DNA of 64,000 nucleotides, taken from Candidatus Uhrbacteria bacterium (GTDB lineage: Bacteria > Patescibacteriota > Patescibacteriia > UBA9934). Location of the stretch: contig JABJOE010000009.1 in assembly GCA_018664485.1 (NCBI GenBank), positions 76,635-140,634 of the forward strand, written 5' to 3'. The notes beneath the pieces are model-generated. The model saw nothing but the letters and a program-made list of their open reading frames with translations. It did no database searches and had not been told where the DNA came from. This document shows positions 4,023-57,688 of this stretch, piece by piece; within the stretch, counting starts at the first letter, position 1, and each line of letters opens with the position of its first letter. A program made the translations under genes and the position numbers.

Positions 4023-4147
4023 AATAGAGCCATCGTAGCCGATTTACCCTGTATGATCAAATAAAAATACAGCCGACAATTAATGATCGGCCGCCAATTT
4101 ATCTTAATTTTTGAGTTCTCAGAGATCGTCCATGACGAGCTCATTCA

Positions 4148-4174
4148 AACCCCCGAGATCGCTCGGTGGGTTTA
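4148..4174 (-). terminator. GC-rich hairpin (AAACCCCCGAG-ATCG-CTCGGTGGGTTT) after the last cassette of the array, before alaS
   Basis: Perfect inverted repeat seen in the sequence. The same CCCGAG...CTCGGG hairpin type follows every cassette ORF. Confidence 0.4.
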
Positions 4175-4237
4175 CAGACCTATATTAGAAAGCGGGCCTG
4201 CTAATAACGCTTTTTAGAAAGACTCCTAAAACTCAGA

Positions 4238-4669
4238 CTATGCCCAAAGCTTATTCAAGTCATTGCCGCTGATGAACTCAGGCATGTGAACACCTCTTTT
4301 TGTCTGACGAGAAGCCCTTGCCTGTCTACGAATCAACTGGCAAAGCTCCATTGCCCTGGGCACTTCGTTAGCGTCCACGTGTGCCCCTGAACTCATACGG
4401 CATGTAACACCGCCATCACCGTTCTCCATGTACTTCAACACACCTGGATGACGAACCATCTTAACGCCCAGATCCAGAACCTGCTGATAGGTGATGTCTC
4501 CAAAACCCAGCGCATGTGCCGAAACGACTGTCTGCCTACGACTCGTAGGAAGAGCGCCGTGCCCCAGAAGGGCTGTAGGACGAATTACTGTGACCGATGA
4601 ACCGTCTGCGAACCAAAAGGTCCTCATTCCGAGCTCATCCCTCTGATAAAGCGGCTGATTTTCAGCCAT
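4238..4669 (-). CDS. hypothetical protein, GC-rich cassette A (143 aa)
   Basis: ORF 4238..4762 trimmed to MAENQPLYQ..., which follows the conserved leader repeat directly. The N-terminal extension in the ORF track is just translation of the repeat. No recognisable family. Confidence 0.5.
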   Translation of the reverse strand: MAENQPLYQRDELGMRTFWFADGSSVTVIRPTALLGHGALPTSRRQTVVSAHALGFGDITYQQVLDLGVKMVRHPGVLKYMENGDGGVTCRMSSGAHVDANEVPRAMELCQLIRRQARASRQTKRGVHMPEFISGNDLNKLWA

Positions 4670-4729
4670 ATCGTCTCTTCTGAACCGTAGTTTTGTCCGG
4701 CTCGCAGCGCATCCCTGGGGAGATCCCAG
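4670..4729 (-). repeat. conserved cassette leader, copy A (about 48 nt plus covarying 5-bp hairpin)
   Basis: Gene-strand consensus CAGGGATGCGCTGCGAGCCGGACAAAACTACGGTTCAGAAGTAAAGAGGA then ATG. Four copies at 4670, 5162, 5601 and 6171. Confidence 0.85.
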
Positions 4730-4786
4730 AGTGTACGCATCTAAGCCCCCGAGTGATCGCACTCGGGAGACGCAGTATCTGTGGAC

Positions 4787-5161
4787 CTAAAGGCAAACCG
4801 GATAATGAATCACTCCTGATTGATCAGAAGCTACAGACTGCTCAGCGAGCATTCTCTCAACCTGCCTAACCTTGTCCATATCGCGAAGCACTTGTGTTAT
4901 TCCTTTGTCATCAACCCATTCAAACGCCACTCTGTAGCGACCCTTGAAGTGCTGCCGGAATATCTTCACCCCTCGGACTTCACGAGTTCCAGGAAGGAAC
5001 CAAGTCATAAGGAGTGACAAGAGCCACGGCCACTTCACGAAAAAGTTCGTGAGTCTCGTCTGCTCTCCAACAAGCCTTCTTCCACTGGAGAACCAGATTT
5101 CCAGCTCACCCTGTCCGTTCACTGCCGTGTGAACGGGAACCATTTCCTTGATAGATTTCAT
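4787..5161 (-). CDS. hypothetical protein, GC-rich cassette B (124 aa)
   Basis: The ATG sits immediately after the leader repeat, which ends in an AGAGGA Shine-Dalgarno sequence. No recognisable family. Confidence 0.5.
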   Translation of the reverse strand: MKSIKEMVPVHTAVNGQGELEIWFSSGRRLVGEQTRLTNFFVKWPWLLSLLMTWFLPGTREVRGVKIFRQHFKGRYRVAFEWVDDKGITQVLRDMDKVRQVERMLAEQSVASDQSGVIHYPVCL

Positions 5162-5225
5162 TCCTCTTTACTTCTGAACCGTAGTTTTGTCCGGCTCGCA
5201 GCGCCTCTTTGAAACCAATCAAAGA
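5162..5225 (-). repeat. conserved cassette leader, copy B
   Basis: Near-identical to copy A. The preceding hairpin TTTGA-ttggt-TCAAA covaries with CTGGG-atctc-CCCAG of copy A. Confidence 0.85.
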
Positions 5226-5276
5226 AGAGCGATAGAGCCCCAAAGCGTCACGCGCTTTGGGAAGGTCTGGACCTTT

Positions 5277-5600
5277 TTAGATCCGATCAATTCTTGCCAT
5301 GACACAAATACACCTAATAGTATCACCTAGTTCAAAGATGAAGCGCAGCGTTACCTGTCTAGCAGCTTGAATACAGGTGTAGACCAAAATGTTCATGGCA
5401 CCATCCTCACTGTAATGGCTTCCTGCACGGTACCAAAGTGGACTATCTCTAAGGATTTCGTCCAACTCTGCGAACCAGTCACTATTTCGAGACACCATCA
5501 CTCGATAATGAGACTCGTGAAGAAAGTCTCTCGGAATGAAATTCGGATTAGGCTCGAAGGTTCCATAAGGAACTGGAACTATGACTATAGAGCTACTCAT
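5277..5600 (-). CDS. hypothetical protein, GC-rich cassette C (107 aa)
   Basis: The ATG sits immediately after the leader repeat. No recognisable family. Confidence 0.45.
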   Translation of the reverse strand: MSSSIVIVPVPYGTFEPNPNFIPRDFLHESHYRVMVSRNSDWFAELDEILRDSPLWYRAGSHYSEDGAMNILVYTCIQAARQVTLRFIFELGDTIRCICVMARIDRI

Positions 5601-5661
5601 GTCTTTTTACAGAACCGTGGTTATTTCCGGCTCGCAGCGCATCCCTGAAACGAATTTTCAG
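5601..5661 (-). repeat. conserved cassette leader, copy C
   Basis: The GGGATGCGCTGCGAGCCGG core is conserved. The hairpin CTGAAA-attcg-TTTCAG covaries with the other copies. Confidence 0.8.
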
Positions 5662-5753
5662 AGCTGTGCAGTTGAGCCACCGAGAGAAAATCTCTCGAGT
5701 GACACGAACTTTTGTTTATGCGGTGTTCGTACGTAGAACCGCTAGATATGAAC

Positions 5754-6170
5754 TTATTTTACTGGCGGTCGAAGGAAGCGCTGATCAACCATTTTTTTGT
5801 ACTTTTCAGTTGACAGTTCTTCGTATGTGAGCTGAGTCGGGTAAACAATCCCCTCACAGATACTAGCAGCCTCCTGCTGTCCAGCAATCCGCAACAGGAG
5901 CTCTCTTCGATCGTCTGCGAGTGTGACGTGGTAGCCACCTCTCACGTCCAACCAATAGACAGTGTCACCTTCCTCATCATCAAAGTAAGCCAGAATTCCT
6001 GCAAAGAATCCGTACTCGACGTCATTGAGGACATTGTCAGGATCCTTCACCTTTCCGTACCTGTACTCCGTTCCTTTTGGGGCCCCGCAGCACCTTCCGT
6101 CCAGTGCGAAGATCCATTCTTTTCCGGTGATGATGACCTTGATCAGGTCACTAGATGTGCTATCGGGCAT
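5754..6170 (-). CDS. hypothetical protein, GC-rich cassette D (138 aa)
   Basis: ORF 5754..6293 trimmed to MPDSTSSDLIK..., which follows the leader repeat (…GTAAAGAG ATG). No recognisable family. Confidence 0.5.
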   Translation of the reverse strand: MPDSTSSDLIKVIITGKEWIFALDGRCCGAPKGTEYRYGKVKDPDNVLNDVEYGFFAGILAYFDDEEGDTVYWLDVRGGYHVTLADDRRELLLRIAGQQEAASICEGIVYPTQLTYEELSTEKYKKMVDQRFLRPPVK

Positions 6171-6233
6171 CTCTTTACTTCTGAACCGTGGTAGAACCGG
6201 CTCGCAACGCATCTCTAGAAAAGAACTTCCTAG
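6171..6233 (-). repeat. conserved cassette leader, copy D (first in transcription order)
   Basis: …GATGCGTTGCGAGCCGGTTCTACCACGGTTCAGAAGTAAAGAG ATG. Confidence 0.8.
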
Positions 6234-6366
6234 CTTATGCGTATTTAGGCCCCCGAGATAACTCGGATGTAAAAAAACTGGCAACCACAACAATTAAGTC
6301 GTAATCCCAGTAATCTGATCGCTGGTTCAGAGATATATTGTCTGACAATTCTTTACCTCTGAGACA

Positions 6367-6395
6367 AGGATAGCATAAAATCGCACTTTTGTCAA
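6367..6395 (-). promoter_or_regulatory. putative promoter of the cassette array (TTGACA, 17 nt, TGcTATCCT)
   Basis: Gene-strand ACTTGACAAAAGTGCGATTTTATGCTATCCT. About 24 nt are identical, spacer included, to the promoter at 18625 and highly similar to the one at 29905. Confidence 0.45.
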
Positions 6396-6427
6396 GTACG
6401 ACCGAACAAATAAATCGCTTATCTTAG

Positions 6428-8035
6428 CTAATTTTGTTCCAAAATTGCCTCTTCGGGGTGATTTTTACGCATAATCTTTCGGCGAAGTCCGCTAACTATA
6501 TTGAGTAGCTCCTCGCTTTTGAACAGATAAGCAATTGATACATAAACAAGAAGTCCAGCGCCACCTGCAACCAACAATTGAGCGAAAACGCCAACAAATG
6601 TATCGAGTGTAATCCACTCAACTACAACACCCTTAACAATCTGAGTAACGACCCCACAGCATGCCGCAGCAGCCACAAAGACCAATAGAGACTTTGCAAT
6701 GTGCAACTCGCCCAAGCTCCCCATCTTCACACGTAACCACCCCCATAGGAAGACGAACTGAATGACAACAGCAATCGAATATGCAGCGCCTAATCCGATT
6801 ACACCAAATTCTTGGGTTAATAACACCGCGGCAAATCCATGAAATACAGCCGCGAACGTTCCTATTATAAACGGAGCAACTGTCTGCCCACGTGAAAAGT
6901 ATACTCGCACCAATAAGTAAATTAGCGCCTGGATAGTCAGCGTCATAGCAAAGAGCCCCAATGTGTTCGCGGTAAGAATTGTAGCCTCCCAGTCGAATTG
7001 ACCAGCACCCACCACTAAACGGACAACCTGCGCACGAAGCATGATGAATAGAACTGTTGCAGGAACTAAAAAGAATAACATCTGCCTTGCCGTGGATGAG
7101 ATCGTTTGTACAAACGCTTTCTTCTTTTTATCATTCGCCAACTCGCACAATGTCGGATACGCAGCTATAGCGTACGACACCCCAATGATCCCAACTGCAA
7201 AAAAGTTCAAATTATATGCGAATTGCAAAACCGTTACTGACCCTACAGCTAACGTTGAAGCGATAGCAGTCATCAAAAAGATATTCACCTGCCCCACCGC
7301 AAGACCTAGGGTTCTCGGCATCATATGCTTAAGCGTATAGATAACGTCTTTGTCTTTGAGAACTAAACTAAATTTAAAACGATGACCAAGCGCCCTCGCC
7401 CCCATCCATTGCGTAAACATATGCAATGCGGCTCCGATAACAACACCCCAAGCCAGACCTATCGGCCACTCTTCCGTTGCAATCCATACAGCTCCAACGA
7501 TAATACCTACATTGTAAAAAATTGGAGCCAGCGAGTATATAAAGAACCGCTTAGCACCCTGTAGCACCGATCCGTAGATCATAGACACGGACAAAAGGAA
7601 CTGAGCTAAGAACATCACACGGGACATGTCAGCGACCATATCAAGCTTAGCCTGCGAGAATCCAGGGGCAACCATGGCGGCTAATGGATCGGCCGCAACC
7701 ATCATTATAAGCGTCACTACACCAAAACCGATAGCAACCAGTGTAAGCATGGTGTTTGTAAATTTCCACGCCTTCTTTATTCGTTTTTTGTGATAGTACT
7801 TTGTAAAAATCGGAATGAAACTAGCAGAAAGTGCTCCCACGACAATCATCTGAAACATCAAATCAGGAATCCGAAATGCTGCAAAATACACATCTAAGAC
7901 ATCAGAAGCTCCAAACAGTCCAGCCAAGATTCTATCGCGAACGAATCCTACAAGACGAGACAGAATCGAAAACAGTGCAACAATTGCTGCTGCACTTGTA
8001 ATCGTATTAGATTTTCCTGAGAGCCATGAAAACAT
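6428..8035 (-). CDS. murJ: lipid II flippase MurJ (MviN family)
   Basis: 535 aa polytopic membrane protein. The N-terminal VGFVRDRILAGLFGASDVLDVYFAAFRIPD is characteristic of MurJ. Confidence 0.85.
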   Translation of the reverse strand: MFSWLSGKSNTITSAAAIVALFSILSRLVGFVRDRILAGLFGASDVLDVYFAAFRIPDLMFQMIVVGALSASFIPIFTKYYHKKRIKKAWKFTNTMLTLVAIGFGVVTLIMMVAADPLAAMVAPGFSQAKLDMVADMSRVMFLAQFLLSVSMIYGSVLQGAKRFFIYSLAPIFYNVGIIVGAVWIATEEWPIGLAWGVVIGAALHMFTQWMGARALGHRFKFSLVLKDKDVIYTLKHMMPRTLGLAVGQVNIFLMTAIASTLAVGSVTVLQFAYNLNFFAVGIIGVSYAIAAYPTLCELANDKKKKAFVQTISSTARQMLFFLVPATVLFIMLRAQVVRLVVGAGQFDWEATILTANTLGLFAMTLTIQALIYLLVRVYFSRGQTVAPFIIGTFAAVFHGFAAVLLTQEFGVIGLGAAYSIAVVIQFVFLWGWLRVKMGSLGELHIAKSLLVFVAAAACCGVVTQIVKGVVVEWITLDTFVGVFAQLLVAGGAGLLVYVSIAYLFKSEELLNIVSGLRRKIMRKNHPEEAILEQN

Positions 8036-14370: not shown

Positions 14371-14381
14371 TGCAGCTCTTG

Positions 14382-14428
14382 AGGTTATAGGTTTCAAGTA
14401 TTAGGTTTTAGCGCCGATACCTAAAACT
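14382..14428. repeat. partial copy of the TAGGT-heptad palindromic (IVS-like) element
   Basis: GAGGTTATAGGTTTCAAGTATTAGGTTTTAG-cgccga-TACCTAAAAC. The left arm carries TAGGT heptads and the right arm is truncated. Confidence 0.3.
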
Positions 14429-18088: not shown

Positions 18089-18116
18089 TGAGTCATTAAG
18101 TCCTTGAGAGTATACT
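18089..18116 (+). promoter_or_regulatory. putative promoter (TTGAGT, 17 nt, TATACT) giving a near-leaderless mRNA
   Basis: The -10 element ends 8 nt before the ATG at 18125. Confidence 0.35.
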
Positions 18117-18124
18117 CAATATAC

Positions 18125-18592
18125 ATGAAGAATTTTAGCACATATATCATAGTTGGCATTGCCATTCTATCCACCGTTCTGCTGACCGGTCGTCTTTTTG
18201 ATACTACCTGGGCTGGAGGCGACGGATATAGCACTCAGGGCACTGCAGTCGCAGATGAAGCCGTCTATCAACGTGGAGAAACAATAGCTACTCTAGATGG
18301 CGAATGGCTGGAAGTGCAAATCGGCGACACGACAGTCTGGATGTACGAGAATACTGAATTGAAGCTCATCAACCTATCTGAGGATGGTCTCGAACTGACG
18401 GTAATTCAGGGACGAATCGTGCTATATGGTCACGCCGACATGCGAATACGCGATGAGGTCGAAACTTTGGATGGATTATATTCCTACGTTAACTATAGCT
18501 GGCTTTTAAAAACAGATGTCCAATACATAAATGACGATTTTAACTACTCCGAGTCTGAAGCTGCAGACTTCTACGATTGGGCTTTGTTTTAG
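18125..18592 (+). CDS. hypothetical membrane-anchored protein
   Basis: First ATG of ORF 18104..18592. N-terminal TM helix, then a beta-rich domain. Confidence 0.5.
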   Translation: MKNFSTYIIVGIAILSTVLLTGRLFDTTWAGGDGYSTQGTAVADEAVYQRGETIATLDGEWLEVQIGDTTVWMYENTELKLINLSEDGLELTVIQGRIVLYGHADMRIRDEVETLDGLYSYVNYSWLLKTDVQYINDDFNYSESEAADFYDWALF

Positions 18593-18624
18593 CTAAAATT
18601 AGCGACTTTTTTGCTCAAAGGTAC

Positions 18625-18653
18625 TTGACAAAAGTGCTTTTTTATGTCATTAT
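18625..18653 (+). promoter_or_regulatory. promoter module ACTTGACAAAAGTGCTTTTTTATGTCATTAT (shared with cassette arrays)
   Basis: Consensus -35 TTGACA, 17-nt spacer, CATTAT. Spacer sequence is identical to the array promoter at 6367..6395. Confidence 0.55.
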
Positions 18654-18753
18654 GGGCACGACGAAAGTCACTTCACCCAAAAACAACGGCTCAAAGCCAA
18701 AACGCGGCAACCCCGCAATCGAGAGACTATTGAAACTGAAGACACTGGTCGCA

Positions 18754-19122
18754 ATGGCCACCATCATGTTCGCAACCTTCGCCACCAAGACCGCCGAGGC
18801 ATGCGGAGGTGAAAACTTGCATATGTACTTCGGCTACGACTGGTTCGTCTACAGGTTGCCGAAGGATCACCCAAAGGGTGCTACGGTTGTAAGAGCGATC
18901 CCCAAATCGAAACTCACCGTTGTCATTGACGACGAGGGCGATAGCACGGTCGTCACTCTCCATGAGGGTGATAAAACCCTGATGACCGGAAAGATCTTCG
19001 CATGCTTCCGCTGTATGAGTTCCCCGACCTACATCAAATGGGAAGACCCTGAGACAAGAAAAGAACGAAAAGTGAACGACAAGGGTACCGCAGCGGCCCG
19101 ACTCGCATGCGTGAGCGAATAG
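18754..19122 (+). CDS. hypothetical protein in a GC-rich island (start uncertain)
   Basis: The upstream part of the ORF overlaps the promoter -10, so the start was moved to MATIMFATFATKTAEA (signal-peptide-like). The 5' UTR carries a GAC-GAAA-GTC tetraloop hairpin like the cassette leaders. Confidence 0.4.
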   Translation: MATIMFATFATKTAEACGGENLHMYFGYDWFVYRLPKDHPKGATVVRAIPKSKLTVVIDDEGDSTVVTLHEGDKTLMTGKIFACFRCMSSPTYIKWEDPETRKERKVNDKGTAAARLACVSE

Positions 19123-19200
19123 CGCTCTCACCCCGCATGACATCACCCCCTCCTGGTTCTCCGGGAGAGGGTGATTTGCTTTTGCGGTACCCTTCACCAA

Positions 19201-20574
19201 CTAAAACACAAACTCTTGCGAGAACATCGGAATGATTACCTCGCTATCAATTTCTTTTTCAATAAACTCTTTGAATTCTGGCTTTACCTTCTCATCACCG
19301 TGCACCAAAAATACCTGATCTATCTTCCCTTCTTTTGGTTTGAGCCAGGATCGTAGCTTGTTACGATCACCATGCGCCGAGAATGACCCGATAGCCTTGA
19401 TAGTCGCGTTTACATCTATATCCTTCTGGTGAATCTTAACTTTCTTTGCACCATCTTTAATCTGGCGCCCCAGAGTTCCCTCTGCCTGGTAACCGATGAT
19501 CAATACCCCGCTCTTTTTATCTGACAGATACCGAATAAGATGATGCAGGATTCTCCCACCTGTCATCATTCCGGATCCAGCAATAATAATCTTTGGGCCA
19601 CGATCGCTGTTGATCTTTTTCGACGCATCCATTCGCAACGTCTCCACCAAACGTGGGAACGTAAAGAAGTCATGGTCTGAACTTGAATGAATCGGCCGAT
19701 CAAAACGTAGATAATGTTTAAAATGTCTGTAAATTTCAGTAGCTTTAATTGCAAGCGGACTATCCAAATATACCGGAACCTTGGGTAGAACCCCCTCGTC
19801 TGCCAGCAGGTCCAACTCATAAAGTAACTCCTGTGTACGCTCGATCGAAAATGCAGGAATAAGCAATGTTCCTCCACGATTAATGATCGACGACACCATC
19901 TTTACCAACTCCTTATTACGTTGCGGAACAGGTTCATGATCGCGATTACCGTAAGTCGTCTCACATACAACTATATCCGCCTTCAAAATAGGCTCTGTGT
20001 CTGGTAGAATTGGTACCTCCTCATTTCCAATATCTCCACTAAATAGTAATCGTTTTGGTTTACCGTCTTCTGTTTCACTCCCTGGTACATCGATAGTTAC
20101 ATACGCAGAACCTAAGATATGACCTGCGTCGTGGAACATCACATTTACACCCGGAACAATCTCAAACTGAGTGTGGTATCCGATACCTTTCATCTGGGAT
20201 TCTGTTCTCTTTACATCATCAGGAGAAAATAAAATAATGTCACCATTACGCCGAGCATTTTCGGACATGACATGCTGAGCGTCTTCAAGCACGATAGATG
20301 CCAACGCTTTGGTTGGTGGAGTTGTATAAATCGTTCCCCGGAATCCCTGCTTCACGATGAGCGGATAGCGTCCGATGTGATCGTAATGAGCATGCGTGAT
20401 AATTCCAGCATCGATGTCCTTAGCATTAAATCCAACGTCTATCAGATTCTTATTAGACACCATTCGCTGACCCTGGAACATTCCACAGTCAACAAGTATT
20501 TTACTCTCTTTAAACTCCAACAAAAAACACGACCCGGTTACGCCGCGGACTCCTCCGTGAAAAGATAGCTTCAT
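19201..20574 (-). CDS. metallo-beta-lactamase / beta-CASP family ribonuclease
   Basis: HAHYDH metal-binding motif plus a beta-CASP region and C-terminal His, typical of the RNA-metabolising MBL family. Confidence 0.75.
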   Translation of the reverse strand: MKLSFHGGVRGVTGSCFLLEFKESKILVDCGMFQGQRMVSNKNLIDVGFNAKDIDAGIITHAHYDHIGRYPLIVKQGFRGTIYTTPPTKALASIVLEDAQHVMSENARRNGDIILFSPDDVKRTESQMKGIGYHTQFEIVPGVNVMFHDAGHILGSAYVTIDVPGSETEDGKPKRLLFSGDIGNEEVPILPDTEPILKADIVVCETTYGNRDHEPVPQRNKELVKMVSSIINRGGTLLIPAFSIERTQELLYELDLLADEGVLPKVPVYLDSPLAIKATEIYRHFKHYLRFDRPIHSSSDHDFFTFPRLVETLRMDASKKINSDRGPKIIIAGSGMMTGGRILHHLIRYLSDKKSGVLIIGYQAEGTLGRQIKDGAKKVKIHQKDIDVNATIKAIGSFSAHGDRNKLRSWLKPKEGKIDQVFLVHGDEKVKPEFKEFIEKEIDSEVIIPMFSQEFVF

Positions 20575-27733: not shown

Positions 27734-27929
27734 ACGAAAAGAGTATAACGCTCTGTGGGTTTTTTTGTAAATACCTAGCGCGGAATTGTCCACATTATTG
27801 ACTATTTGGCTCAAAATTGCTAACTTAATTCCTTCTTCGCTTTTCTGGCGTGGAGAGGGCTTACGGACCCTGGCAATGCCAAAGACGTAAAAACAACCTG
27901 AAACCTTGCGCCAGTGGCGCGGAGGTAAT

Positions 27930-28733
27930 ATGAGACGACCAGACGATACACCCCTTCCCAACCAGTCAACATTCGAAAAGGCCGTAATGGGACACGGTGA
28001 TTGCACGTACTTCGGTACCATGTTCACAAAGTCGCAGGCACAAGCCGGCAAGTCGGTAGATCGGGCGTACGAAGCAGCCGCTACGGCAGCGGGCATGCTG
28101 ACGACTGATGGAAGGGACGAAGTAGATATTCCCGGCGACTTTTTCGTAGGTCGCTGCTCTGCGGCAAATGAGAATGGACACTCGTGGTTCACGGCTCACT
28201 GGTTCGAATATAGGCTTCCTTTGTACGGAATGATGCTGACCAATCCCGAGTATCAAGCGACAGCGCTCCTGCTTGCAGGATATCTCCAGCTTGGCGAAGG
28301 GATAACCGGAAAGAAATTCGCTCACTACAGGGTACTCGAAGGACTGAAGTTTCTTCCAATCGTCCTGTCCCCCTCGGGCATTCGGTTCTACATGTATCGT
28401 CCGACCACAGAGAGTATGCGCAAAGCGGCGATACAGTTCGCAGAAGTCCTCACGCGCATGCGCGCTCACGGATTTCTGAGCAAAGAAGGTTTGATGAATG
28501 CATTCCTGAGCGTGCACACAATTCTGGGAATCAAGCGGGTACAGGACCTTGCTCGTAATGAAGTTACTGCAGAGTCAATTGCTGCCGCCATTGCAGCCCT
28601 CCATACAGAGTTCGTGGAATCCCTAGGCGGAATGACTGGCGGTTCCCTGGGCATGGTTCTCAGGGATGTCGGACACGGCCCGCACGATACAAAGCTCTTC
28701 GACGCTGGTAAAGGCAAAATTCGTCGGAGCTAG
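27930..28733 (+). CDS. hypothetical protein in a GC-rich island (267 aa)
   Basis: Start at the ATG 5 nt after a GGAGG SD. GC is clearly elevated over the flanks. A strong terminator follows. No recognisable family. Confidence 0.5.
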   Translation: MRRPDDTPLPNQSTFEKAVMGHGDCTYFGTMFTKSQAQAGKSVDRAYEAAATAAGMLTTDGRDEVDIPGDFFVGRCSAANENGHSWFTAHWFEYRLPLYGMMLTNPEYQATALLLAGYLQLGEGITGKKFAHYRVLEGLKFLPIVLSPSGIRFYMYRPTTESMRKAAIQFAEVLTRMRAHGFLSKEGLMNAFLSVHTILGIKRVQDLARNEVTAESIAAAIAALHTEFVESLGGMTGGSLGMVLRDVGHGPHDTKLFDAGKGKIRRS

Positions 28734-28744
28734 CTGCCACTCGT

Positions 28745-28784
28745 CCGCCATCGACCCTCGTGTCGGTGGCGGGCTGTTGCTTTT
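28745..28784 (+). terminator. intrinsic terminator of the GC-rich gene
   Basis: CCGCCATCGAC-cctcgt-GTCGGTGGCGG followed by GCTGTTGCTTTT. Confidence 0.65.
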
Positions 28785-29403: not shown

Positions 29404-29537
29404 AAAATTGACAAAGCCTTGTTTTGTATTAAAATTTGATCAAATTCCTGCGTCACATACCAGGTCGGTTTACGAAAGTGAACTAAGTAGGAAAATTTCA
29501 CCTCACCAAATGAAATCTATTGAAGCTGGAGGATACC

Positions 29538-29753
29538 ATGGCTCTGGATGACGTTTTGGCAAGAGAGATGGGTCGTGAACCTGCAGCCGGCCACCAAGGA
29601 CAGACACGCGCACCCACTGACCAATCAATCGGTAATGCGATGAGATTCGCTGCCGCATGTAGACGACTCTCAGCGAGAGCGAGGCACGGCCACCACAAGC
29701 GACTCCCACGACGCCAAACAGAACAAGAAACGCCCCATTGGCACATCGACTAG
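29538..29753 (+). CDS. hypothetical small basic protein, GC-rich tandem cassette 1 (71 aa, ends PHWHID)
   Basis: ATG 5 nt after a GGAGGA SD. The last 6 codons lie inside the 123-bp direct repeat. Confidence 0.45.
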   Translation: MALDDVLAREMGREPAAGHQGQTRAPTDQSIGNAMRFAAACRRLSARARHGHHKRLPRRQTEQETPHWHID

Positions 29754-29860
29754 CCCGCGTCACCATCTTGGCGTGAGGAGCACCCGTACGATCTGATCGT
29801 GCGGGTGCCTTGCTTTTTACATGTAAAAAAACCGCTCTACCCTCACAACAAAACTTTCTA
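29738..29860 (+). repeat. 123-bp direct repeat copy 1 (ORF 3' end + terminator + T/A palindrome)
   Basis: Near-identical to 30421..30543. Contains the hairpin GCACCCGTACGATC-tga-TCGTGCGGGTGC, then CTTGCTTTTTACATGTAAAAAAA. Confidence 0.9.
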
Positions 29861-29904
29861 CGCATACACAACCAAATTACGTATTTTTTTGCTACTCATA
29901 TACT

Positions 29905-29933
29905 TGACAAAAGACCTATTTTATGACAATATT
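29905..29933 (+). promoter_or_regulatory. promoter module ACTTGACAAAAGACCTATTTTATGACAATAT for cassette 2
   Basis: TTGACA, 17 nt, CAATAT. Homologous to the modules at 18625 and 6395. Confidence 0.5.
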
Positions 29934-30040: not shown

Positions 30041-30436
30041 ATGCCCGCAACCGGAGACAAGGACTACGTCCGCTATCTCGTCAGAACCAGTGGAGGAGTC
30101 AAACGATTCCGTGACTCACAGGATTCGCCTGATGGCGGCCGCGTTGAAGTCCCGTTCGAACTCAGCATCATGTCCTGGAATGGCAAGAGATGGGTCCACC
30201 CGCAGCCTACCAATAACTGGATCGTGATCATCGACGGCACGCATCGTGGCAATATCGCTGGAAGTGTTCTTCTTCGAGGTAAAATGCGTCGACGGCACCA
30301 TGACGCAGGTATCCGTAAAGAATACGACTTCAAGGGCATCCGGTTCTTCGGCCATAGCCCTCTTGTAGGAAGTGCTCTCGGATTCCTCAACGTCTGGGAT
30401 CACGGCACAAGCCCGCCCGCTTGGCACATCGACTAG
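30041..30436 (+). CDS. hypothetical protein, GC-rich tandem cassette 2 (131 aa, ends PPAWHID)
   Basis: ORF 29948..30436 trimmed to MPATGDKDY, 6 nt after an AAGGAGG SD. The C-terminal 6 codons are shared with cassette 1 through the direct repeat. Confidence 0.45.
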   Translation: MPATGDKDYVRYLVRTSGGVKRFRDSQDSPDGGRVEVPFELSIMSWNGKRWVHPQPTNNWIVIIDGTHRGNIAGSVLLRGKMRRRHHDAGIRKEYDFKGIRFFGHSPLVGSALGFLNVWDHGTSPPAWHID

Positions 30437-30543
30437 CCCGCGTCACCATCTTGGCGTGAGGAGCACCCGTACGATCTGATCGTGCGGGTGCCTTGCTTTT
30501 TACATGTAAAAAAACCGCTCTACCCACGCAACAAAACTTTCTA
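30421..30543 (+). repeat. 123-bp direct repeat copy 2
   Basis: See copy 1. Confidence 0.9.
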
Positions 30544-40238: not shown

Positions 40239-40690
40239 TTAGGGATTAGGGATTAGGTGTTAGGTATCAAAACTCATCAGAGACCAGCTTTCAATGAACG
40301 GATTGAGCTATTTAACATCTTCATAACCTCAGTAAGTGACCCCAATAACGGGTTGACACCGTCATCGTCAACAAACTTTAAACGTTTTGCGATCTCTATC
40401 TGTGTTTCCAATTCTGACCCTGAAGCATACGCAATATAAACAAAACGCAGAAATTCTTTTCTGGAGCCCCTGCCACGTCCCTCTGCAATATTAGAGGGAA
40501 TAGAAACGGCGCATCTCCTCATCTGTGATATAAGTCCATATTGTTCTTCTTTGGGGAAACTCGCAGTCATACGATAGACCGATACCACTAAGTCCATTGC
40601 CTTTTGCCACATGACTAAATCTTTATAACTCTTCACCTCCATACCTATAAGATAGTGTCTATCACCTAATACCTGATACCTATAACCTGA
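40239..40690. mobile_element. IVS-like element: long imperfect inverted repeat of TAGGT heptads enclosing a four-helix-bundle protein gene
   Basis: Left arm TTAGGGATTAGGGATTAGGTGTTAGGTATCA (40239-40270). Right arm TGATACCTATAACCTGA region (40661-40690). The arms are reverse-complementary with wobble pairs and abut the ORF stop and start. Confidence 0.45.
40277..40642 (-). CDS. four-helix-bundle protein (23S rRNA intervening-sequence protein family; Avd-like)
   Basis: 121 aa; …VYRMTASFPKEEQYGLISQMRRCAVSIPSNIAEG… is the hallmark block of the PF05635/TIGR02436 family. Confidence 0.8.
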   Translation of the reverse strand: MEVKSYKDLVMWQKAMDLVVSVYRMTASFPKEEQYGLISQMRRCAVSIPSNIAEGRGRGSRKEFLRFVYIAYASGSELETQIEIAKRLKFVDDDGVNPLLGSLTEVMKMLNSSIRSLKAGL

Positions 40691-40693
40691 CCA

Positions 40694-41416
40694 CTAAAAG
40701 AAGGTTCTGTCTTTTGAGCCCTTGATAAGGTTAAAAGCCTCCTCTCCTGAATCAACAATTTTTACAAGATCCAAGTCCTCCGGGGAGATCGTTTCAAACT
40801 CCTCCGCCATTGTCTCTTTGACCCACGAGAATAAGCCGTTCCAATAGTCTTTACCGATTAAAATAACTGGGATCGTTTCAGATTTCCCTGTCTGAATGAG
40901 TGTAAGGATTTCAAACAACTCATCCATTGTTCCAAATCCACCAGGCATATATACATACGCCTGAGCAGAAGCTGCAAGCATCACTTTTCTGGTGAAGAAA
41001 TAATGAAATCCCAATCCCTTGTTTACAAAAGGATTTAAACTCTGCTCCATTGGTAATTGAATGTTCATTCCAACAGAAATACCACCACCTTCGTGTGCAC
41101 CTTTATTTGCCGCTTCCATCATTCCGCCGCCACCTCCTGTAACGACAGTAAAGTCATTCTCTGCCAGTAAGCGTCCAAGAGTAACTGCTTCTCCGTACCA
41201 CTTACTAGTCGGAGCGGTACGTGCAGATCCAAAGATGGTCACCTCGCGTTTGAGCGTAGAGAGGAACTGAAAACCTTCCACGAACTCAGCCATTATTCGA
41301 AAAATCCTCCAAGTGATGTCTGACATCTTTGGTGGTTCTCCCGCCTGTTTTTTTGACTCAATTTCATCCGCGGCTAAAGGAATGCGGCAAATATCTTCTT
41401 GATGTTTTTTTCCCAT
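40694..41416 (-). CDS. LOG-family protein (cytokinin riboside 5'-monophosphate phosphoribohydrolase-like)
   Basis: GGGxGxMEAANKGA and PGGFGTMDE motifs. Confidence 0.8.
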   Translation of the reverse strand: MGKKHQEDICRIPLAADEIESKKQAGEPPKMSDITWRIFRIMAEFVEGFQFLSTLKREVTIFGSARTAPTSKWYGEAVTLGRLLAENDFTVVTGGGGGMMEAANKGAHEGGGISVGMNIQLPMEQSLNPFVNKGLGFHYFFTRKVMLAASAQAYVYMPGGFGTMDELFEILTLIQTGKSETIPVILIGKDYWNGLFSWVKETMAEEFETISPEDLDLVKIVDSGEEAFNLIKGSKDRTFF

Positions 41417-48441: not shown

Positions 48442-49161
48442 TCACTGGTCGGGGTCTGCTTCGTCAGTCAGGTCAACGAATGGCATGTCGTCGCGGTGCG
48501 CGACCATGATGACGCGACCGTCCTCGTACTCACAGGCCACAGAGTAGTTCATTCCCAAGTACCAACGGTATGCAGGAGAGGCTCTCTTTGTACGAGCTAC
48601 AAATACCTTGAGACCGGCCATTGCCAACTTCCGGTAGCGAGCACGGAACAGGCGTTTGCCAATGCCGTTGGACCAGAGACGTTCAAGAACGAAGATCTCG
48701 TCCTGGTAAGCCACGTGCCCTTCTTCAGGATACCTTCGGTTTAGAAATTCTGCGATCTTTTCATGCCCGGTGGTTCGCTGTACACGACTGGGACGCAGAG
48801 CATATCCCCACGTACCCCCCACTACACCAGGCTTTCCGTCCTGTGTAGCGACAACACAAACCGCGTGCGGATTTTGCATTTGCTTGTGGAGATCAGCGAG
48901 AACATCACTAGCAGGCCAATACGGCACAACGAGTCCGCTACACTTCGGGCAACTCCCATGTGCCGGTGGGCTATCAAGTGGCCAAACGTACGAGCTGCCG
49001 TTGCTCTTGCAGTTTGTACACTTCCACCCCTCATTCCAAGGAGATCCTCCAAATACCCAGGTGTAGCATGTGATGACGTCAGACGCCAAGTCACACACAA
49101 CTGCTTTTTTCTCACCAGCAAGAGGTAAGTACCTGATGCGAATATCCTCAATCAATGCCAT
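48442..49161 (-). CDS. hypothetical protein in a GC-rich island (Cys-rich zinc-ribbon-like segment plus possible GNAT-like C-terminus)
   Basis: Start trimmed to MALIEDIRIR after a GGAGAGG SD. CTNCK...CPKCSG. IGKRLF...AGLKVFV resembles acetyltransferase motif A. GC clearly elevated. Confidence 0.45.
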   Translation of the reverse strand: MALIEDIRIRYLPLAGEKKAVVCDLASDVITCYTWVFGGSPWNEGWKCTNCKSNGSSYVWPLDSPPAHGSCPKCSGLVVPYWPASDVLADLHKQMQNPHAVCVVATQDGKPGVVGGTWGYALRPSRVQRTTGHEKIAEFLNRRYPEEGHVAYQDEIFVLERLWSNGIGKRLFRARYRKLAMAGLKVFVARTKRASPAYRWYLGMNYSVACEYEDGRVIMVAHRDDMPFVDLTDEADPDQ

Positions 49162-49284
49162 GGCCTCTCCTGCGTTACAGGGTTTGCGGTTGATGTGAGT
49201 TTCTCGAATTGAGAAACGGTAAAAGAACACATTTCATATAAACACAAAAATCCCCATATGTCCAGGAGGACTTTACATGGAAAC

Positions 49285-49367
49285 TTAGGTGGTAGGTATT
49301 AGGTACTAGGTTTTAGGCAGGTAACTCATCGCTGATACTTATAACCTAATACCTAGAACCTATAACC
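49285..49367. repeat. empty-site copy of the TAGGT-heptad IVS-like palindrome (no ORF)
   Basis: TTAGGTGGTAGGTATTAGGTACTAGGTTTTAGG - caggtaactcatcgctgatac - TTATAACCTAATACCTAGAACCTATAACC. The loop retains AACTCATC, as found next to the ORF stop in the full copy. Confidence 0.5.
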
Positions 49368-49649
49368 TTTCGAGCGTGCAGAGTGGGTAATGCGGTCGCT
49401 CGCAAAGCCCCGACCTCTGCGAACAGCCATGTTCCAGATTCAATCAAAAGAATGTTTGTACTAAACCATGTCTGTTCACTAAGCCCAGGTTCTTGTAATT
49501 AGTTATGTTCTTGATTTATTTGGATGAATATTTAGACGAAATGGATGACAGGCAAGGAAGCATAGCAGAGCTACGCTGACGAGCCTGGAGTGCATTGCAG
49601 TCAAATATACGACAAATAGATCAGAACGATAACTGATTTCAATAACCCC

Positions 49650-55986: not shown

Positions 55987-56124
55987 ATGAGCCCTTTGGA
56001 AATCGGCTGCCTCCTTGCGATCATCGCCATCATGCAAATGTTTGGCAATGACAATGACTTCTCACACCAAGTAGGAACGAAAAAGAAGATGAACGCATTT
56101 CTCACCAACTCGCCCTCAATCTGA
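55987..56124 (+). CDS. possible small hydrophobic protein (45 aa), not in ORF track
   Basis: Manual translation gives MSPLEIGCLLAIIAIMQMFGNDNDFSHQVGTKKKMNAFLTNSPSI, with an AAAGAG SD-like sequence upstream. It ends inside the first trailer repeat. Confidence 0.25.
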   Translation: MSPLEIGCLLAIIAIMQMFGNDNDFSHQVGTKKKMNAFLTNSPSI

Positions 56125-56196
56125 GGGCATTTCCAGAGCAGATCAAAAGATGGTCAATTCTGGAAAATACAAAATCGCCTTAACAGCGTTTTTTGC
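56111..56196 (+). repeat. trailer repeat copy 1 (covarying hairpin plus TGGTCAATTCTG...AAAATCGCCTTAAC(A/G)GCG T-run)
   Basis: GCCCTCA-atc-TGAGGGC here against GCCCTT-tctc-AAGGGC in copy 2. About 45 nt of the downstream part are conserved. Confidence 0.6.
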
Positions 56197-56235
56197 TTTT
56201 ATATCGAAAGTAACCCAAAAACCGTTCACTGCAAC

Positions 56236-56264
56236 TTGACAAAAAGGCTAAAATCTGCTATTAT
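56236..56264 (+). promoter_or_regulatory. strong consensus promoter (TTGACA, 17 nt, TATTAT) for the candidate small RNA
   Basis: ACTTGACAAAAAGGCTAAAATCTGCTATTAT. Confidence 0.55.
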
Positions 56265-56270
56265 ACGCAT

Positions 56271-56410
56271 GTGTTAGAGAAGTAATCTAGTTACGATTAC
56301 TTCAAAGTATCTTCAAAACTCATGGGCCACTCGCCTCGCCCAAAAGTAGGCAAAAACATGAAATCATGTTCCCTTACGTTGACCCGTAAGATTTTGGACA
56401 TGAGTTTTTT
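56271..56410 (+). ncRNA. candidate small RNA of about 140 nt with three internal hairpins, a closing helix and a U7 tail
   Basis: GAAGTAATC/GATTACTTC 9-bp stem. CATG-aaat-CATG. CTTACG-ttgacc-CGTAAG. Closing CTCATG...CATGAG then TTTTTTT. No ORF of meaningful size. Confidence 0.4.
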
Positions 56411-56491
56411 TATAATCAGACTTTGGTACCTCGCGATGATACATAAACGTATTTCGCGCAGCAGGAGCTACACAACATAACAGTCTCGCTA

Positions 56492-56549
56492 CTTGCGGGC
56501 GGTCACATCAAGCACAGAAATCCTTCTGTTCTTGCCATGACCTTTGGAG
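56492..56549 (+). repeat. leader repeat copy 1 (…GGTCACATCAAGCACAGAAATCCTTCTG…GCCATGACCTTTGGAG)
   Basis: About 55 nt are shared with 57276..57335. It contains the CAGAA-atcc-TTCTG hairpin and ends in a GGAG SD. Confidence 0.7.
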
Positions 56550-56554
56550 ACCAA

Positions 56555-57229
56555 ATGTTCCTTATAGCCATTCTTCTGAACCTTCTTGGAAGCATCGCTG
56601 TCGCTTCTGATGACTGCAAACAAGTTGTCAGCGTTTACCACTACACGCTAGCTGAAGGAGTTGTCTTTCTGGCAGGAGAATCGAACAAAAAGATGGAGAT
56701 ATTCGACAACGAATTCTTCTGTGTTACAGGCGACACCTTCACGGCCAGCTACATGAAAAATGGTGAAACTCTAAAAAAATTCACCACCCCAATTGAAGCG
56801 GGAAATCACTACGTATACGAAGGTAGTATGCCCGACCATCCAGATGATGAGTATCTTGTGAAGATTCAACAGCCAACTCAAGAGAACCTCATCTTCCGTT
56901 TTGGAGACGACTGGAAAGCACAGACACTTACTCCGACTGAAAGTAAATGTGTAAAGCTGACCGCCAGAATAACATGCAGCGCAAATACAAACTCCTCACT
57001 TATCGTTGGTGACGAAGTTGTTGAGCAAGGCGACAACGTTGAGCTATGCATCAAACCTTTAAAGAGCATCATCCCCGTAGAAGTAGCAACACAAAATAAC
57101 GCTTGGTATGCAGACGAAGGTGATGAGTGGATCAGAAACTACGGAACCTACTTGTCAAAAGGAAACAACTGGGAATGGAACGCTAGCAGGAATTACTGCA
57201 CAGTAGACATATCCCAAACCAATCAGTAA
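56555..57229 (+). CDS. hypothetical secreted protein
   Basis: ORF 56537..57229 trimmed to MFLIAILLNLLGSIAVASDDC, after a GGAGA SD. Signal peptide; no family recognised. Confidence 0.5.
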   Translation: MFLIAILLNLLGSIAVASDDCKQVVSVYHYTLAEGVVFLAGESNKKMEIFDNEFFCVTGDTFTASYMKNGETLKKFTTPIEAGNHYVYEGSMPDHPDDEYLVKIQQPTQENLIFRFGDDWKAQTLTPTESKCVKLTARITCSANTNSSLIVGDEVVEQGDNVELCIKPLKSIIPVEVATQNNAWYADEGDEWIRNYGTYLSKGNNWEWNASRNYCTVDISQTNQ

Positions 57230-57275
57230 AAGTAAGGCACTTCAACCGCCATACATTCGACCCGCGGCACCTCGT

Positions 57276-57335
57276 TGCCTGCGGGGGTCACATCGAGTGC
57301 AGAAATCCTTCTGCTTTCGCCATGACCTTTGGAGG
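57276..57335 (+). repeat. leader repeat copy 2
   Basis: See copy 1. Confidence 0.7.
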
Positions 57336-57339
57336 ATTC

Positions 57340-57582
57340 ATGACCAAACAGCTAACCAAGACGCCACGAAATCTCACAATATTACTGATTTTATCCCTCA
57401 TTTCCAGCAGCGCATTTCTAGGGGTAGTTCTCAATAACTGGAAATCTGTATTCTTTGGACAGGAGTGGATACCGAGAACAACTTACCTATACGTAAGTAT
57501 AGGTTTATATAGCCTCAGTCTCATTCTCATTACCTTATCAATTATATCCATGTACTCGTGGATCAAAAAAAGTTACTCGTAA
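57340..57582 (+). CDS. hypothetical small two-TM membrane protein
   Basis: ORF 57322..57582 trimmed to MTKQLTK, after a GGAGGA SD. Confidence 0.45.
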   Translation: MTKQLTKTPRNLTILLILSLISSSAFLGVVLNNWKSVFFGQEWIPRTTYLYVSIGLYSLSLILITLSIISMYSWIKKSYS

Positions 57583-57605
57583 AGTAACAATATACTGAAC
57601 TCTTA

Positions 57606-57688
57606 CCCTTTCTCAAGGGCCTCACCAGAGAAGATCACTCAGTGGTCAATTCTGAGAAATAAAAAATCGCCTTAACGGCGCTTTTTTG
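57606..57688 (+). repeat. trailer repeat copy 2 with small terminator
   Basis: See copy 1. CGCC-ttaa-CGGCG then TTTTTT. Confidence 0.6.

Follow-up and report, generated by a model that had tools for sequence, protein, structure and literature searches.

Within a 64-kb stretch of the ~1-Mb genome of a Candidatus Uhrbacteria bacterium, a member of the candidate phyla radiation (CPR), one and the same 24-nucleotide (nt) promoter core stands three times ahead of GC-rich segments carrying orphan genes. We propose, with a probability that we put at about 0.55, that these are paralogous copies of a strong housekeeping-sigma promoter heading inserted GC-rich orphan units. The sequence ancestor would have been a single strong promoter of the sigma-70/sigma-A type, which was copied, and each copy would now head a lineage-specific GC-rich orphan transcription unit inserted at an intergenic hot spot between conserved housekeeping genes. 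Such units would be moron-like, i.e. autonomous promoter-gene-terminator assemblies of foreign base composition, here residing in a chromosome. The first-pass annotation of this DNA had described the loci as one family of portable expression modules; what stands of that view is that the copies resemble each other more closely than generic promoters would and that the units are self-contained insertions, while no leader common to the three loci was found.

The string ACTTGACAAAAGnnCnnTTTTATG is present exactly three times in the window (the whole 64-kb stretch, GC content 0.443), at 6374-6397 on the minus strand (copy A) and at 18623-18646 (copy B) and 29902-29925 (copy C2) on the plus strand, and the same three sites are the only exact matches of the 24-nt pattern ACTTGACAAAAGNNCNNTTTTATG. 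Chance would yield 0.01 matches even with up to three mismatches allowed, and three were reached in none of 100 shuffles. The three sequences that had been quoted as sharing the -35 element and the spacer are thereby found as written; of the positions given with them, 18625 and 29905 refer to the -35 elements, the copies themselves beginning at 6397 (minus), 18623 and 29902. The -35 is TTGACA in all three (6/6), the spacer is 17 nt long, and a TATG ends one base 5' of the -10 hexamer. For A and B both the spacer length and the TG before the -10 are calls of the prediction tool, whereas for C2 the tool chose an 18-bp alternative and the TG was read from the sequence.

Promoter module A (6362-6431, minus) has the MurJ stop codon as its 5' edge and consists of an upstream tandem TTAGCTAA-G-ATAAGCGA (6415-6431), the -35 (6390-6395), the spacer AAAGTGCGATTTTATGC with its TRTG at 6374-6377, and the -10 TATCCT (6367-6372). 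Module B (18589-18653, plus) begins at the stop codon of the open reading frame (ORF) at 18104-18592 and has a corresponding tandem TTAGCTAA-A-ATTAGCGA (18589-18605), the -35 at 18625-18630, the spacer AAAGTGCTTTTTTATGT and the -10 CATTAT (18648-18653). Copy C2 (29902-29933, plus) comprises the -35 (29904-29909), the spacer AAAGACCTATTTTATGA and the -10 CAATAT (29927-29932). The unit designated C1 has a related promoter in front of it, at 29408, whose spacer is 16 nt long. The loci behind the three copies are indeed GC-rich, as had been claimed (GC 0.485-0.553 against 0.443 in the window), and the GC content at third codon positions of the GC-rich ORFs is 0.41-0.66, compared with 0.39 in 24 housekeeping genes. 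All the proposed ORFs display a coding-like periodicity, with G high at the first codon position and GC low at the second.

Taken by itself, the core is a predicted strong promoter of a generic kind, covered by the general architecture of promoters. Its spacer had been regarded as normally unconstrained, a premise that does not hold: the AAA beside the -35 and the TRTG before the -10 are generic in the related loci, and the spacer follows the known layout of an AT-tract, a GC patch, a second AT-tract and a TRTG extended -10. Across bacteria, spacers are laid out as an AT-tract, a weak GC region, an AT-tract and a TG or TRTG extended -10, and this organization is under selection for promoter strength (PMC12641261); TRTG is the consensus of the Firmicute "-16 region" (PMC6570832). 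A census of the pattern and of the genes downstream was run outside the window on GTDB species genomes, metagenomes and viral contigs, with G accepted besides A in the TRTG element in the metagenome scan. It recovered the 24-mer in 13 GTDB species genomes, one copy each (about 10 of the 13 being Patescibacteria, Magasanikbacteria or Uhrbacteria-type assemblies), in 83 loci from metagenomes, whose GC content spans 27-67%, and on five phage contigs. Since a TATAAT-like hexamer trails the 24-mer at the correct distance in all 78 distinct instances from metagenomes, genomes and phages, these instances are taken to be promoters rather than products of chance. Downstream of them lie genes with no relation to each other, among them those for an IS1595 transposase, FeoA, a LuxR-type response regulator, a T4-type gp32, XRE and HTH_17 regulators, a STAS-like protein and a GIY-YIG endonuclease. 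As the 24-mer stands before such different genes in organisms and phages that are themselves unrelated, the core alone is no mark of a portable module; nor is the identity of the spacers evidence of one, because the spacer layout is general to promoters.

These observations raise the possibility of pure convergence, whereby independent promoters under selection for maximal strength would have reached the same optimum. It would account for an identical 24-mer in unrelated genomes and phages over so wide a range of GC content, always with a -10 behind it, and it agrees with the published selection on spacer composition (PMC12641261). We nevertheless consider it quite unlikely, on the strength of an empirical profile of 49 independent TTGACA-N17-TAnnnT sites, which were drawn from the same loci without use of the 24-mer pattern. 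In this profile the first three spacer positions have A in 73%, 55% and 57% of the sites and TRTG occupies positions 13-16 in 45%; five further positions that are fixed in the copies, G4, C7 and T10-12, are non-generic, and so is the AC prefix. The probability that one promoter matches the pattern is ~1.4e-5 under the profile, and that of three copies among even 400 perfect promoters is ~3e-8. A second exact copy within one genome was found in none of the 13 GTDB genomes.

The likeness of A and B also extends beyond the core. Over the 36 nt upstream of the -35 the two are 69% identical in an ungapped comparison, which places them in the top 0.8% of pairs, all other pairs having a mean of 29%; a longer match between them covers 58 nt at 81%. 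Three copies being too many for independent draws, and A and B being alike upstream as well, the three are probably paralogous. The sequences are best read as descending from one ancestor, with a binding site upstream that they share possibly adding to the likeness. The copies would have arisen by duplication or recombination and not by convergence.

Both upstream regions carry a tandem motif, TTAGCTAA / TTAGCGA, at 10-bp spacing, whose first base in A as in B coincides with the stop codon that ends the preceding gene. The motif is also present at the orthologue of copy A in a sister species (L035) and at two unrelated metagenome or Patescibacteria promoters (L054 and L077/L015). It is conceivable that the copies form a regulon, in which a DNA-binding protein bound to these tandem half-sites, and perhaps to the spacer too, co-regulates the orphan genes and keeps the sequences alike without shared ancestry. 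The motif keeps the same register at all these promoters, its spacing corresponds to one helical turn, and its position, ~17-33 bp upstream of the -35, would suit a class I activator or an UP-like element. However, C2 is without the motif, the instances number five in all, no candidate regulator was identified, and the fact that the motif overlaps the preceding gene's stop codon, at A and at B alike, may simply mark the end of an insert, so that we regard such a regulon as unlikely. A palindromic operator within the spacer was also considered, and was dropped as it is not conserved among the copies when compared by eye.

That the units headed by the probably paralogous copies are insertions is best seen in the relatives. 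The insertion sites lie between MurJ and AlaS (copy A), between a beta-CASP nuclease and a 162-aa gene (B), and between RNR and CobA (C1/C2). The MurJ-alaS gap measures 35 nt in L043; that of L037 measures 290 nt and retains a remnant, and other content occupies the gap in L035, L039, L041 and L042. The genes flanking unit B are convergent in L128 and L129 and overlap at their stop codons, unit B being absent, and the interval from CobA to a 143-aa gene, which here holds unit D, is without that unit in the same two relatives. In the RNR-CobA gap, L128 has a different GC-rich orphan gene behind TTGACAAAACGCCCATTTTGTGCTATAGT, and L129 has a membrane protein. Comparisons of gene order support the view that units A, B and D were inserted in this lineage, in places where other genomes have the flanking genes side by side. 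At both hot spots the sister species places the same promoter type before different GC-rich orphan genes, and across two sister species this promoter type was seen only in front of islets and in no case in front of the conserved genes examined. The idea that promoter and ORF move together as one unit finds no support: the sister species keeps the copy-A promoter with different genes behind it, and in tblastn searches the cassette proteins of the window had no match in the islands of the relatives.

Some further observations concern the same sites. The insert of unit B is flanked by CTAAAA at 18593-18598 and at 19201-19206, and the empty site of L128 (~19145-19155) has CTAAAA once only, where the two stop codons overlap. 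A target duplication of 6 bp could explain the pattern, as could a junction formed at microhomology, from one case at ~20% divergence. In L037, a relative without the array that lies behind copy A, a promoter of the same type, TTGACAAAACAGACAATTTGTGCTACTCT (273-301, plus), leads into ~150 nt of non-coding DNA convergent with era and may head a small RNA. The promoter of C1 was considered as an orthologue of the promoter in the L128 gap and rejected, as only the core aligns.

The individual loci support the view that each GC-rich gene is a self-contained unit of promoter, ~100-nt leader, ORF and terminator or closing hairpin, with terminators predicted behind the units and a ribosome-binding site that is clear in C1, C2, D and the array and not evident in B. 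Unit B (18660-19185, plus, GC 0.54) has a leader at 18660-18753, an ORF at 18754-19122 encoding 122 aa with a hydrophobic N-terminus, and a predicted terminator hairpin followed by TTTGCTTTTG (19143-19185). Unit C2 (29940-30501, plus, GC 0.55) has a leader of ~100 nt, an ORF of 131 aa (30041-30436) and a terminator at 30463-30501. Unit C1 precedes it at 29408-29818 (plus), with the promoter TTGACA, a 16-nt spacer and TAAAAT, a frame-shifted remnant ORF of 71 codons (29538-29753) and, at 29780-29808, the same terminator hairpin, letter for letter, as C2. The promoter, leader and 159-nt tail of C1 and C2 are 82-92% identical (the tail 92%), and the ORF of C1 has suffered large deletions in addition to the frame shift. 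The pair had been counted among modules with a variable ORF, and is better described as a tandem duplication of a whole unit in which the C1 copy has decayed.

The same annotation had drawn on a short GNRA-tetraloop hairpin with compensatory stem changes, supposedly shared by the leaders of the GC-rich genes. Such a hairpin, GGUUCAC-GAAA-GUGAGCU with 7 bp, is predicted in C2 (29965-29982), with its C1 copy at 29466-29483; it is confined to this pair, whose leaders are tandem paralogues (82% identity over 50 nt), and is not common to the three loci. The differences between the two are one-sided transitions that preserve pairing (C-G to U.G, U.G to U-A) and not compensatory changes. At 18660, in B, the GAC-GAAA-GUC element is a 3-bp stem outside the minimum-energy fold, while the array leaders have no GNRA tetraloop and carry a different hairpin, GAGCCG-N8-10-CGGUUC. 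CGGTTCA, the proposed leader signature, is no more frequent in the window than chance would have it (9 occurrences against an expected 7.3), and it forms the 3' arm of the hairpin in the array and the 5' arm in C2. Compared with shuffled sequences the leaders are not of unusual stability (z of -1.5 for B, 0.0 for C1 and -0.2 for C2).

Copy A differs in what lies behind it. From this promoter we predict a transcript of ~90 nt (6268-6361, minus) that has, in order, a 5' hairpin, the conserved segment GAACCAGCGAUCAGAUUACUGG, a long G.U-rich hairpin and seven U residues. Its fold has an energy of -25.8 kcal/mol (z -3.1), and that of the L035 counterpart -31.3 kcal/mol (z -4.2). L035 belongs to a sister species whose MurJ is 81% identical, and its orthologous promoter stands in the same place, with ~80% identity over the module (L035 11705-11768). 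In the L035 leader the first hairpin has diverged and the 22-nt segment GAACCAGCGAWCAGATTACTGG is kept; the terminator stems differ in sequence, with the pairing and the run of seven T preserved. The 22-mer was found in these two species alone and on none of the viral contigs. A simple terminator scan had missed the copy-A terminator because the stem has few G-C pairs and a bulge. Copy A had been thought to drive the four-cassette array; the promoter is indeed upstream of it, with a predicted terminator ~90 nt downstream, ahead of the array, and copy A most likely yields a small RNA or a terminating (attenuator) leader according to the folding predictions. No promoter with at least 10/12 consensus matches was found inside the array, so that the array would be expressed by read-through only.

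The array (4120-6267, minus) contains the ORFs A1 (5754-6170), A2 (5277-5600), A3 (4787-5161) and A4 (4238-4669), and all four spacers, each 5' of an ORF (6171-6267, 5601-5753, 5162-5276 and 4670-4786), contain three hairpins (z of -1.7 to -3.7). The first, H1, has the stem CCGAG...CUCGG in some spacers and other stems elsewhere; the stem of H2 differs in sequence in every copy with its pairing always kept; and the invariant GAGCCG-N8-10-CGGUUC hairpin is followed directly by AGAAG, the ribosome-binding site and the start codon. A fifth H1-like hairpin stands alone in the tail after A4 (~4143-4172). In the L035 array the ORFs are different ones and the repeat has diverged, in the same hairpin-before-start layout, and other contigs with the array of the window are 99.96-100% identical to it. 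A1-A4 have no significant match in four protein family libraries, Pfam, NCBIfam, PADLOC and PHROGs (best E ~0.05-0.09), and A4 has no homologue among 5.8e9 proteins. On viral contigs the array leader motif TGCGAGCCGG-N7-8-ACGGTTC has six matches, all in unrelated GC-rich coding DNA, about the number estimated for chance. The array leader also holds an ATG (GATGCGCTGCGAGCC) at 4662-4715, 5610-5645 and 6170-6212 (minus). It opens short upstream ORFs, one of them (MRCEPDKTTVQKRRYG) overlapping the start of A4 and another (MRCEPEITTVL) preceding A2, and before A1 it is an in-frame extension of the ORF that gene callers have adopted. As the ATG is absent from the third spacer, the conservation of the leader looks to be at the nucleotide level rather than the peptide level.

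The organization of this locus suggests another alternative, an integron-like capture platform in which a resident promoter and leader serve promoterless cassettes exchanged by site-specific recombination. Four co-oriented orphan ORFs without a strong internal promoter, N cassettes bounded by N+1 H1 hairpins, a sister species that keeps promoter and leader with different ORFs, a diverged repeat and the same layout, and a hot spot that is empty in another relative would all fit such a device. Yet a search by regular expression for the attC R'' (RYYYAAC) and R' (GTTRRRY) boxes on both strands gave none in either the window array or the L035 array, and the Pfam lists show no integrase or recombinase within 10 kb or among 10 further ORFs of the window. 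Moreover, B, C and D are single units with promoters of their own, and the G.U pairs in the conserved hairpins suit RNA better than DNA. Site-specific capture therefore seems very improbable to us. A looser variant, in which reduced CPR (Uhrbacteria) genomes would keep fixed "expression platforms" at a few intergenic hot spots, each made up of a resident strong promoter and a regulatory leader, and would capture, array and swap GC-rich orphan cassettes with their H1/H2/H3 repeats by recombination without attC or an integron integrase, the CTAAAA being the insertion scar of unit B, is speculative, and we think it decidedly doubtful.

One might also suppose that the GC-rich segments are structured non-coding RNAs and not protein genes at all. 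Strong promoters are typical of stable-RNA genes, each GC-rich segment has ORFs in several frames, A4 is without a homologue, and copy A itself appears to drive a short non-coding RNA. Against this, every ORF has coding periodicity and most of them (C1, C2, D and the array) stand behind a ribosome-binding site; the protein of unit D belongs to a family of 29 members and has a predicted fold with a pLDDT of 92; the leaders are not unusually stable; and no Rfam family matches these segments even at E <= 1. This interpretation is accordingly the most improbable of those considered. At gathering thresholds the window has no Rfam match, and at E <= 1 its only match is a weak one to CRISPR-DR35 at 41005-41040 (minus), unrelated to the leaders and inside the ORF at 40694-41416 (31.2 bits against a gathering score of 35, E 0.03); this is most likely due to chance, since it is without a surrounding repeat array. 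No tRNA genes are present in the window.

Returning to paralogous promoters heading inserted units, several points weigh against this proposal. Upstream of the core, C2 is only 42-44% identical to A and B in ungapped comparison and resembles them only when one indel is allowed. Each of the -10 hexamers (TATCCT, CATTAT, CAATAT) matches TATAAT at four of six positions, which is acceptable in extended -10 promoters, though not consensus. Start sites, promoter strength and termination are all predictions. The promoter copies of the source genome were counted within the 64-kb window, inside which ~17 promoter-like sites were compared. No phage, integrase or transposase genes were seen near the units and no donor of the GC-rich genes was found, so that composition and patchy distribution make up the argument for horizontal acquisition. 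On our proposal the promoters would fire, and the cargo would have arrived by horizontal transfer.

Several known systems share features with these loci. With the sigma-70/sigma-A extended -10 promoter they have in common the TTGACA, the 17-bp spacer, the TRTG and the four-region spacer (PMC12641261, PMC6570832), differing in a -10 of only 4/6; the general promoter model does not predict that three copies should have non-generic spacer positions in common, or two of them 36 upstream bases. The criteria for phage morons of Hendrix and colleagues, as given in PMC2920897, are insertion, an own promoter and terminator, deviant composition and residence in a phage. Our units agree with three of these four, all but phage residence, with promoter and terminator by prediction, and as with morons different units occupy the same hot spot of different genomes. 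Unlike morons, they are flanked by housekeeping genes (MurJ, AlaRS, ribosomal proteins, RNR, CobA, PBP) in a CPR chromosome and not in a phage or prophage, and their cassette proteins have no significant PHROG match; nor do morons have a counterpart to the four-gene array with repeated structured spacers.

The array in turn recalls integrons and clusters of attC sites lacking integrases (CALINs), the latter being attC clusters without an integrase. A fixed upstream promoter, co-oriented and mostly orphan ORFs, repeated hairpin elements and cargo that differs between close relatives at one site are common to both, the array having four ORFs on one strand behind a common promoter and cassettes that are promoterless at the threshold of 10/12. 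Here, however, the repeats are part of the 5' leader, adjacent to the ribosome-binding site, and make use of G.U pairs. Copy A further resembles small-RNA genes and attenuators in having a strong promoter followed, after ~90 nt, by a hairpin and U7, as well as a single-stranded core conserved between two species, and its leader RNA belongs to no Rfam family. By analogy, the system would work like morons or like an expression platform, and we place it in neither family.

The remaining GC-rich genes of the window merit separate description. Unit D (27798-28784, plus) is GC-rich and has a different promoter (TTGACT, 17 nt, TAACTT, at 27798-27826), a 5' untranslated region (UTR) at 27845-27929, an ORF of 267 aa (27930-28733) and a terminator at 28743-28784. 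Its 5' UTR is kept in two homologues, L127 (2915-3003) and L130 (3912-4003), whose proteins are 28-32% identical. The UTRs consist of GACCCTGGCAnnGCCAAAGA, then TTGCGyCArnGGCGC, then a ribosome-binding site, with a mean column identity of 79% in the three-way alignment, and are thus better conserved than the protein; they have no Rfam match. On the strength of three sequences, which as yet offer no covariation, the UTR is a candidate new cis-regulatory RNA. The protein belongs to a rare family of ~250 aa with 29 representatives among 1.8e9 proteins, and its fold is predicted with a pLDDT of 92 and a pTM of 0.89. It has no significant match in the PDB by sequence profile or by fold and none in Pfam, NCBIfam, PADLOC or PHROGs, and it was not found on viral contigs. 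Its homologues in both other genomes examined are likewise GC-richer than their neighbors.

Across the four libraries the cassette proteins have no significant match, with the exception of a GNAT acetyltransferase (48442-49161), and no paralogy among them was detected besides a weak local match between the proteins of B and D (E 1e-4); kinship of these two was rejected when the match failed in the family alignment. The GNAT gene lies in a GC-rich unit at 48442-49260 (minus, GC 0.52), the only unit with a Pfam match (E 9e-5). Its product has Cys-rich CxxC pairs near the N-terminus, and its promoter is TGGACA-N17-TTATAT with ATTTTTGTG as extended -10. Intergenic runs rich in TAGGT/ACCTA (e.g. 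CTAATACCTAGAACCTATAACCT), which are mutually inverted repeats, are found at 14375-14411, 40659-40688 and 49286-49375, one of them just upstream of the GNAT gene.

A weaker fourth copy of the promoter, ACTTGACAAAAAGGCTAAAATCTGCTATTAT (56234-56264, plus), precedes two small genes of normal GC content. The two ORFs behind it (within 56124-57686, plus), of 230 and 86 aa, are unrelated to each other, and they have in common a 52-nt leader that is 87% identical, including the first four codons (ATGACCTTTGGAG), and a 71-nt terminator region that is 80% identical. From these alignments, the locus is a second case in which different ORFs stand between a common leader and a common terminator.

The genomes of CPR bacteria are minimal, and knowledge of their promoters and of the ways in which they acquire genes is scant; the literature searched contained no paper naming both Uhrbacteria and promoters. 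The main interest of these loci is in the surroundings of the promoter, where lineage-specific orphan units rich in GC recur at hot spots of the chromosome, and not in the core promoter, which is ordinary. Orphan genes of foreign composition are found here in a ready-to-express form at recurrent hot spots between essential genes, in islets headed by the strongest predicted promoters of the region, and at one site a predicted terminated RNA and a repeat-separated array are added. If transcription is confirmed, the promoter would be a usable part for CPR genetics, and the units would be good candidates for the strain-specific surface or host-interaction functions that are expected in episymbionts.

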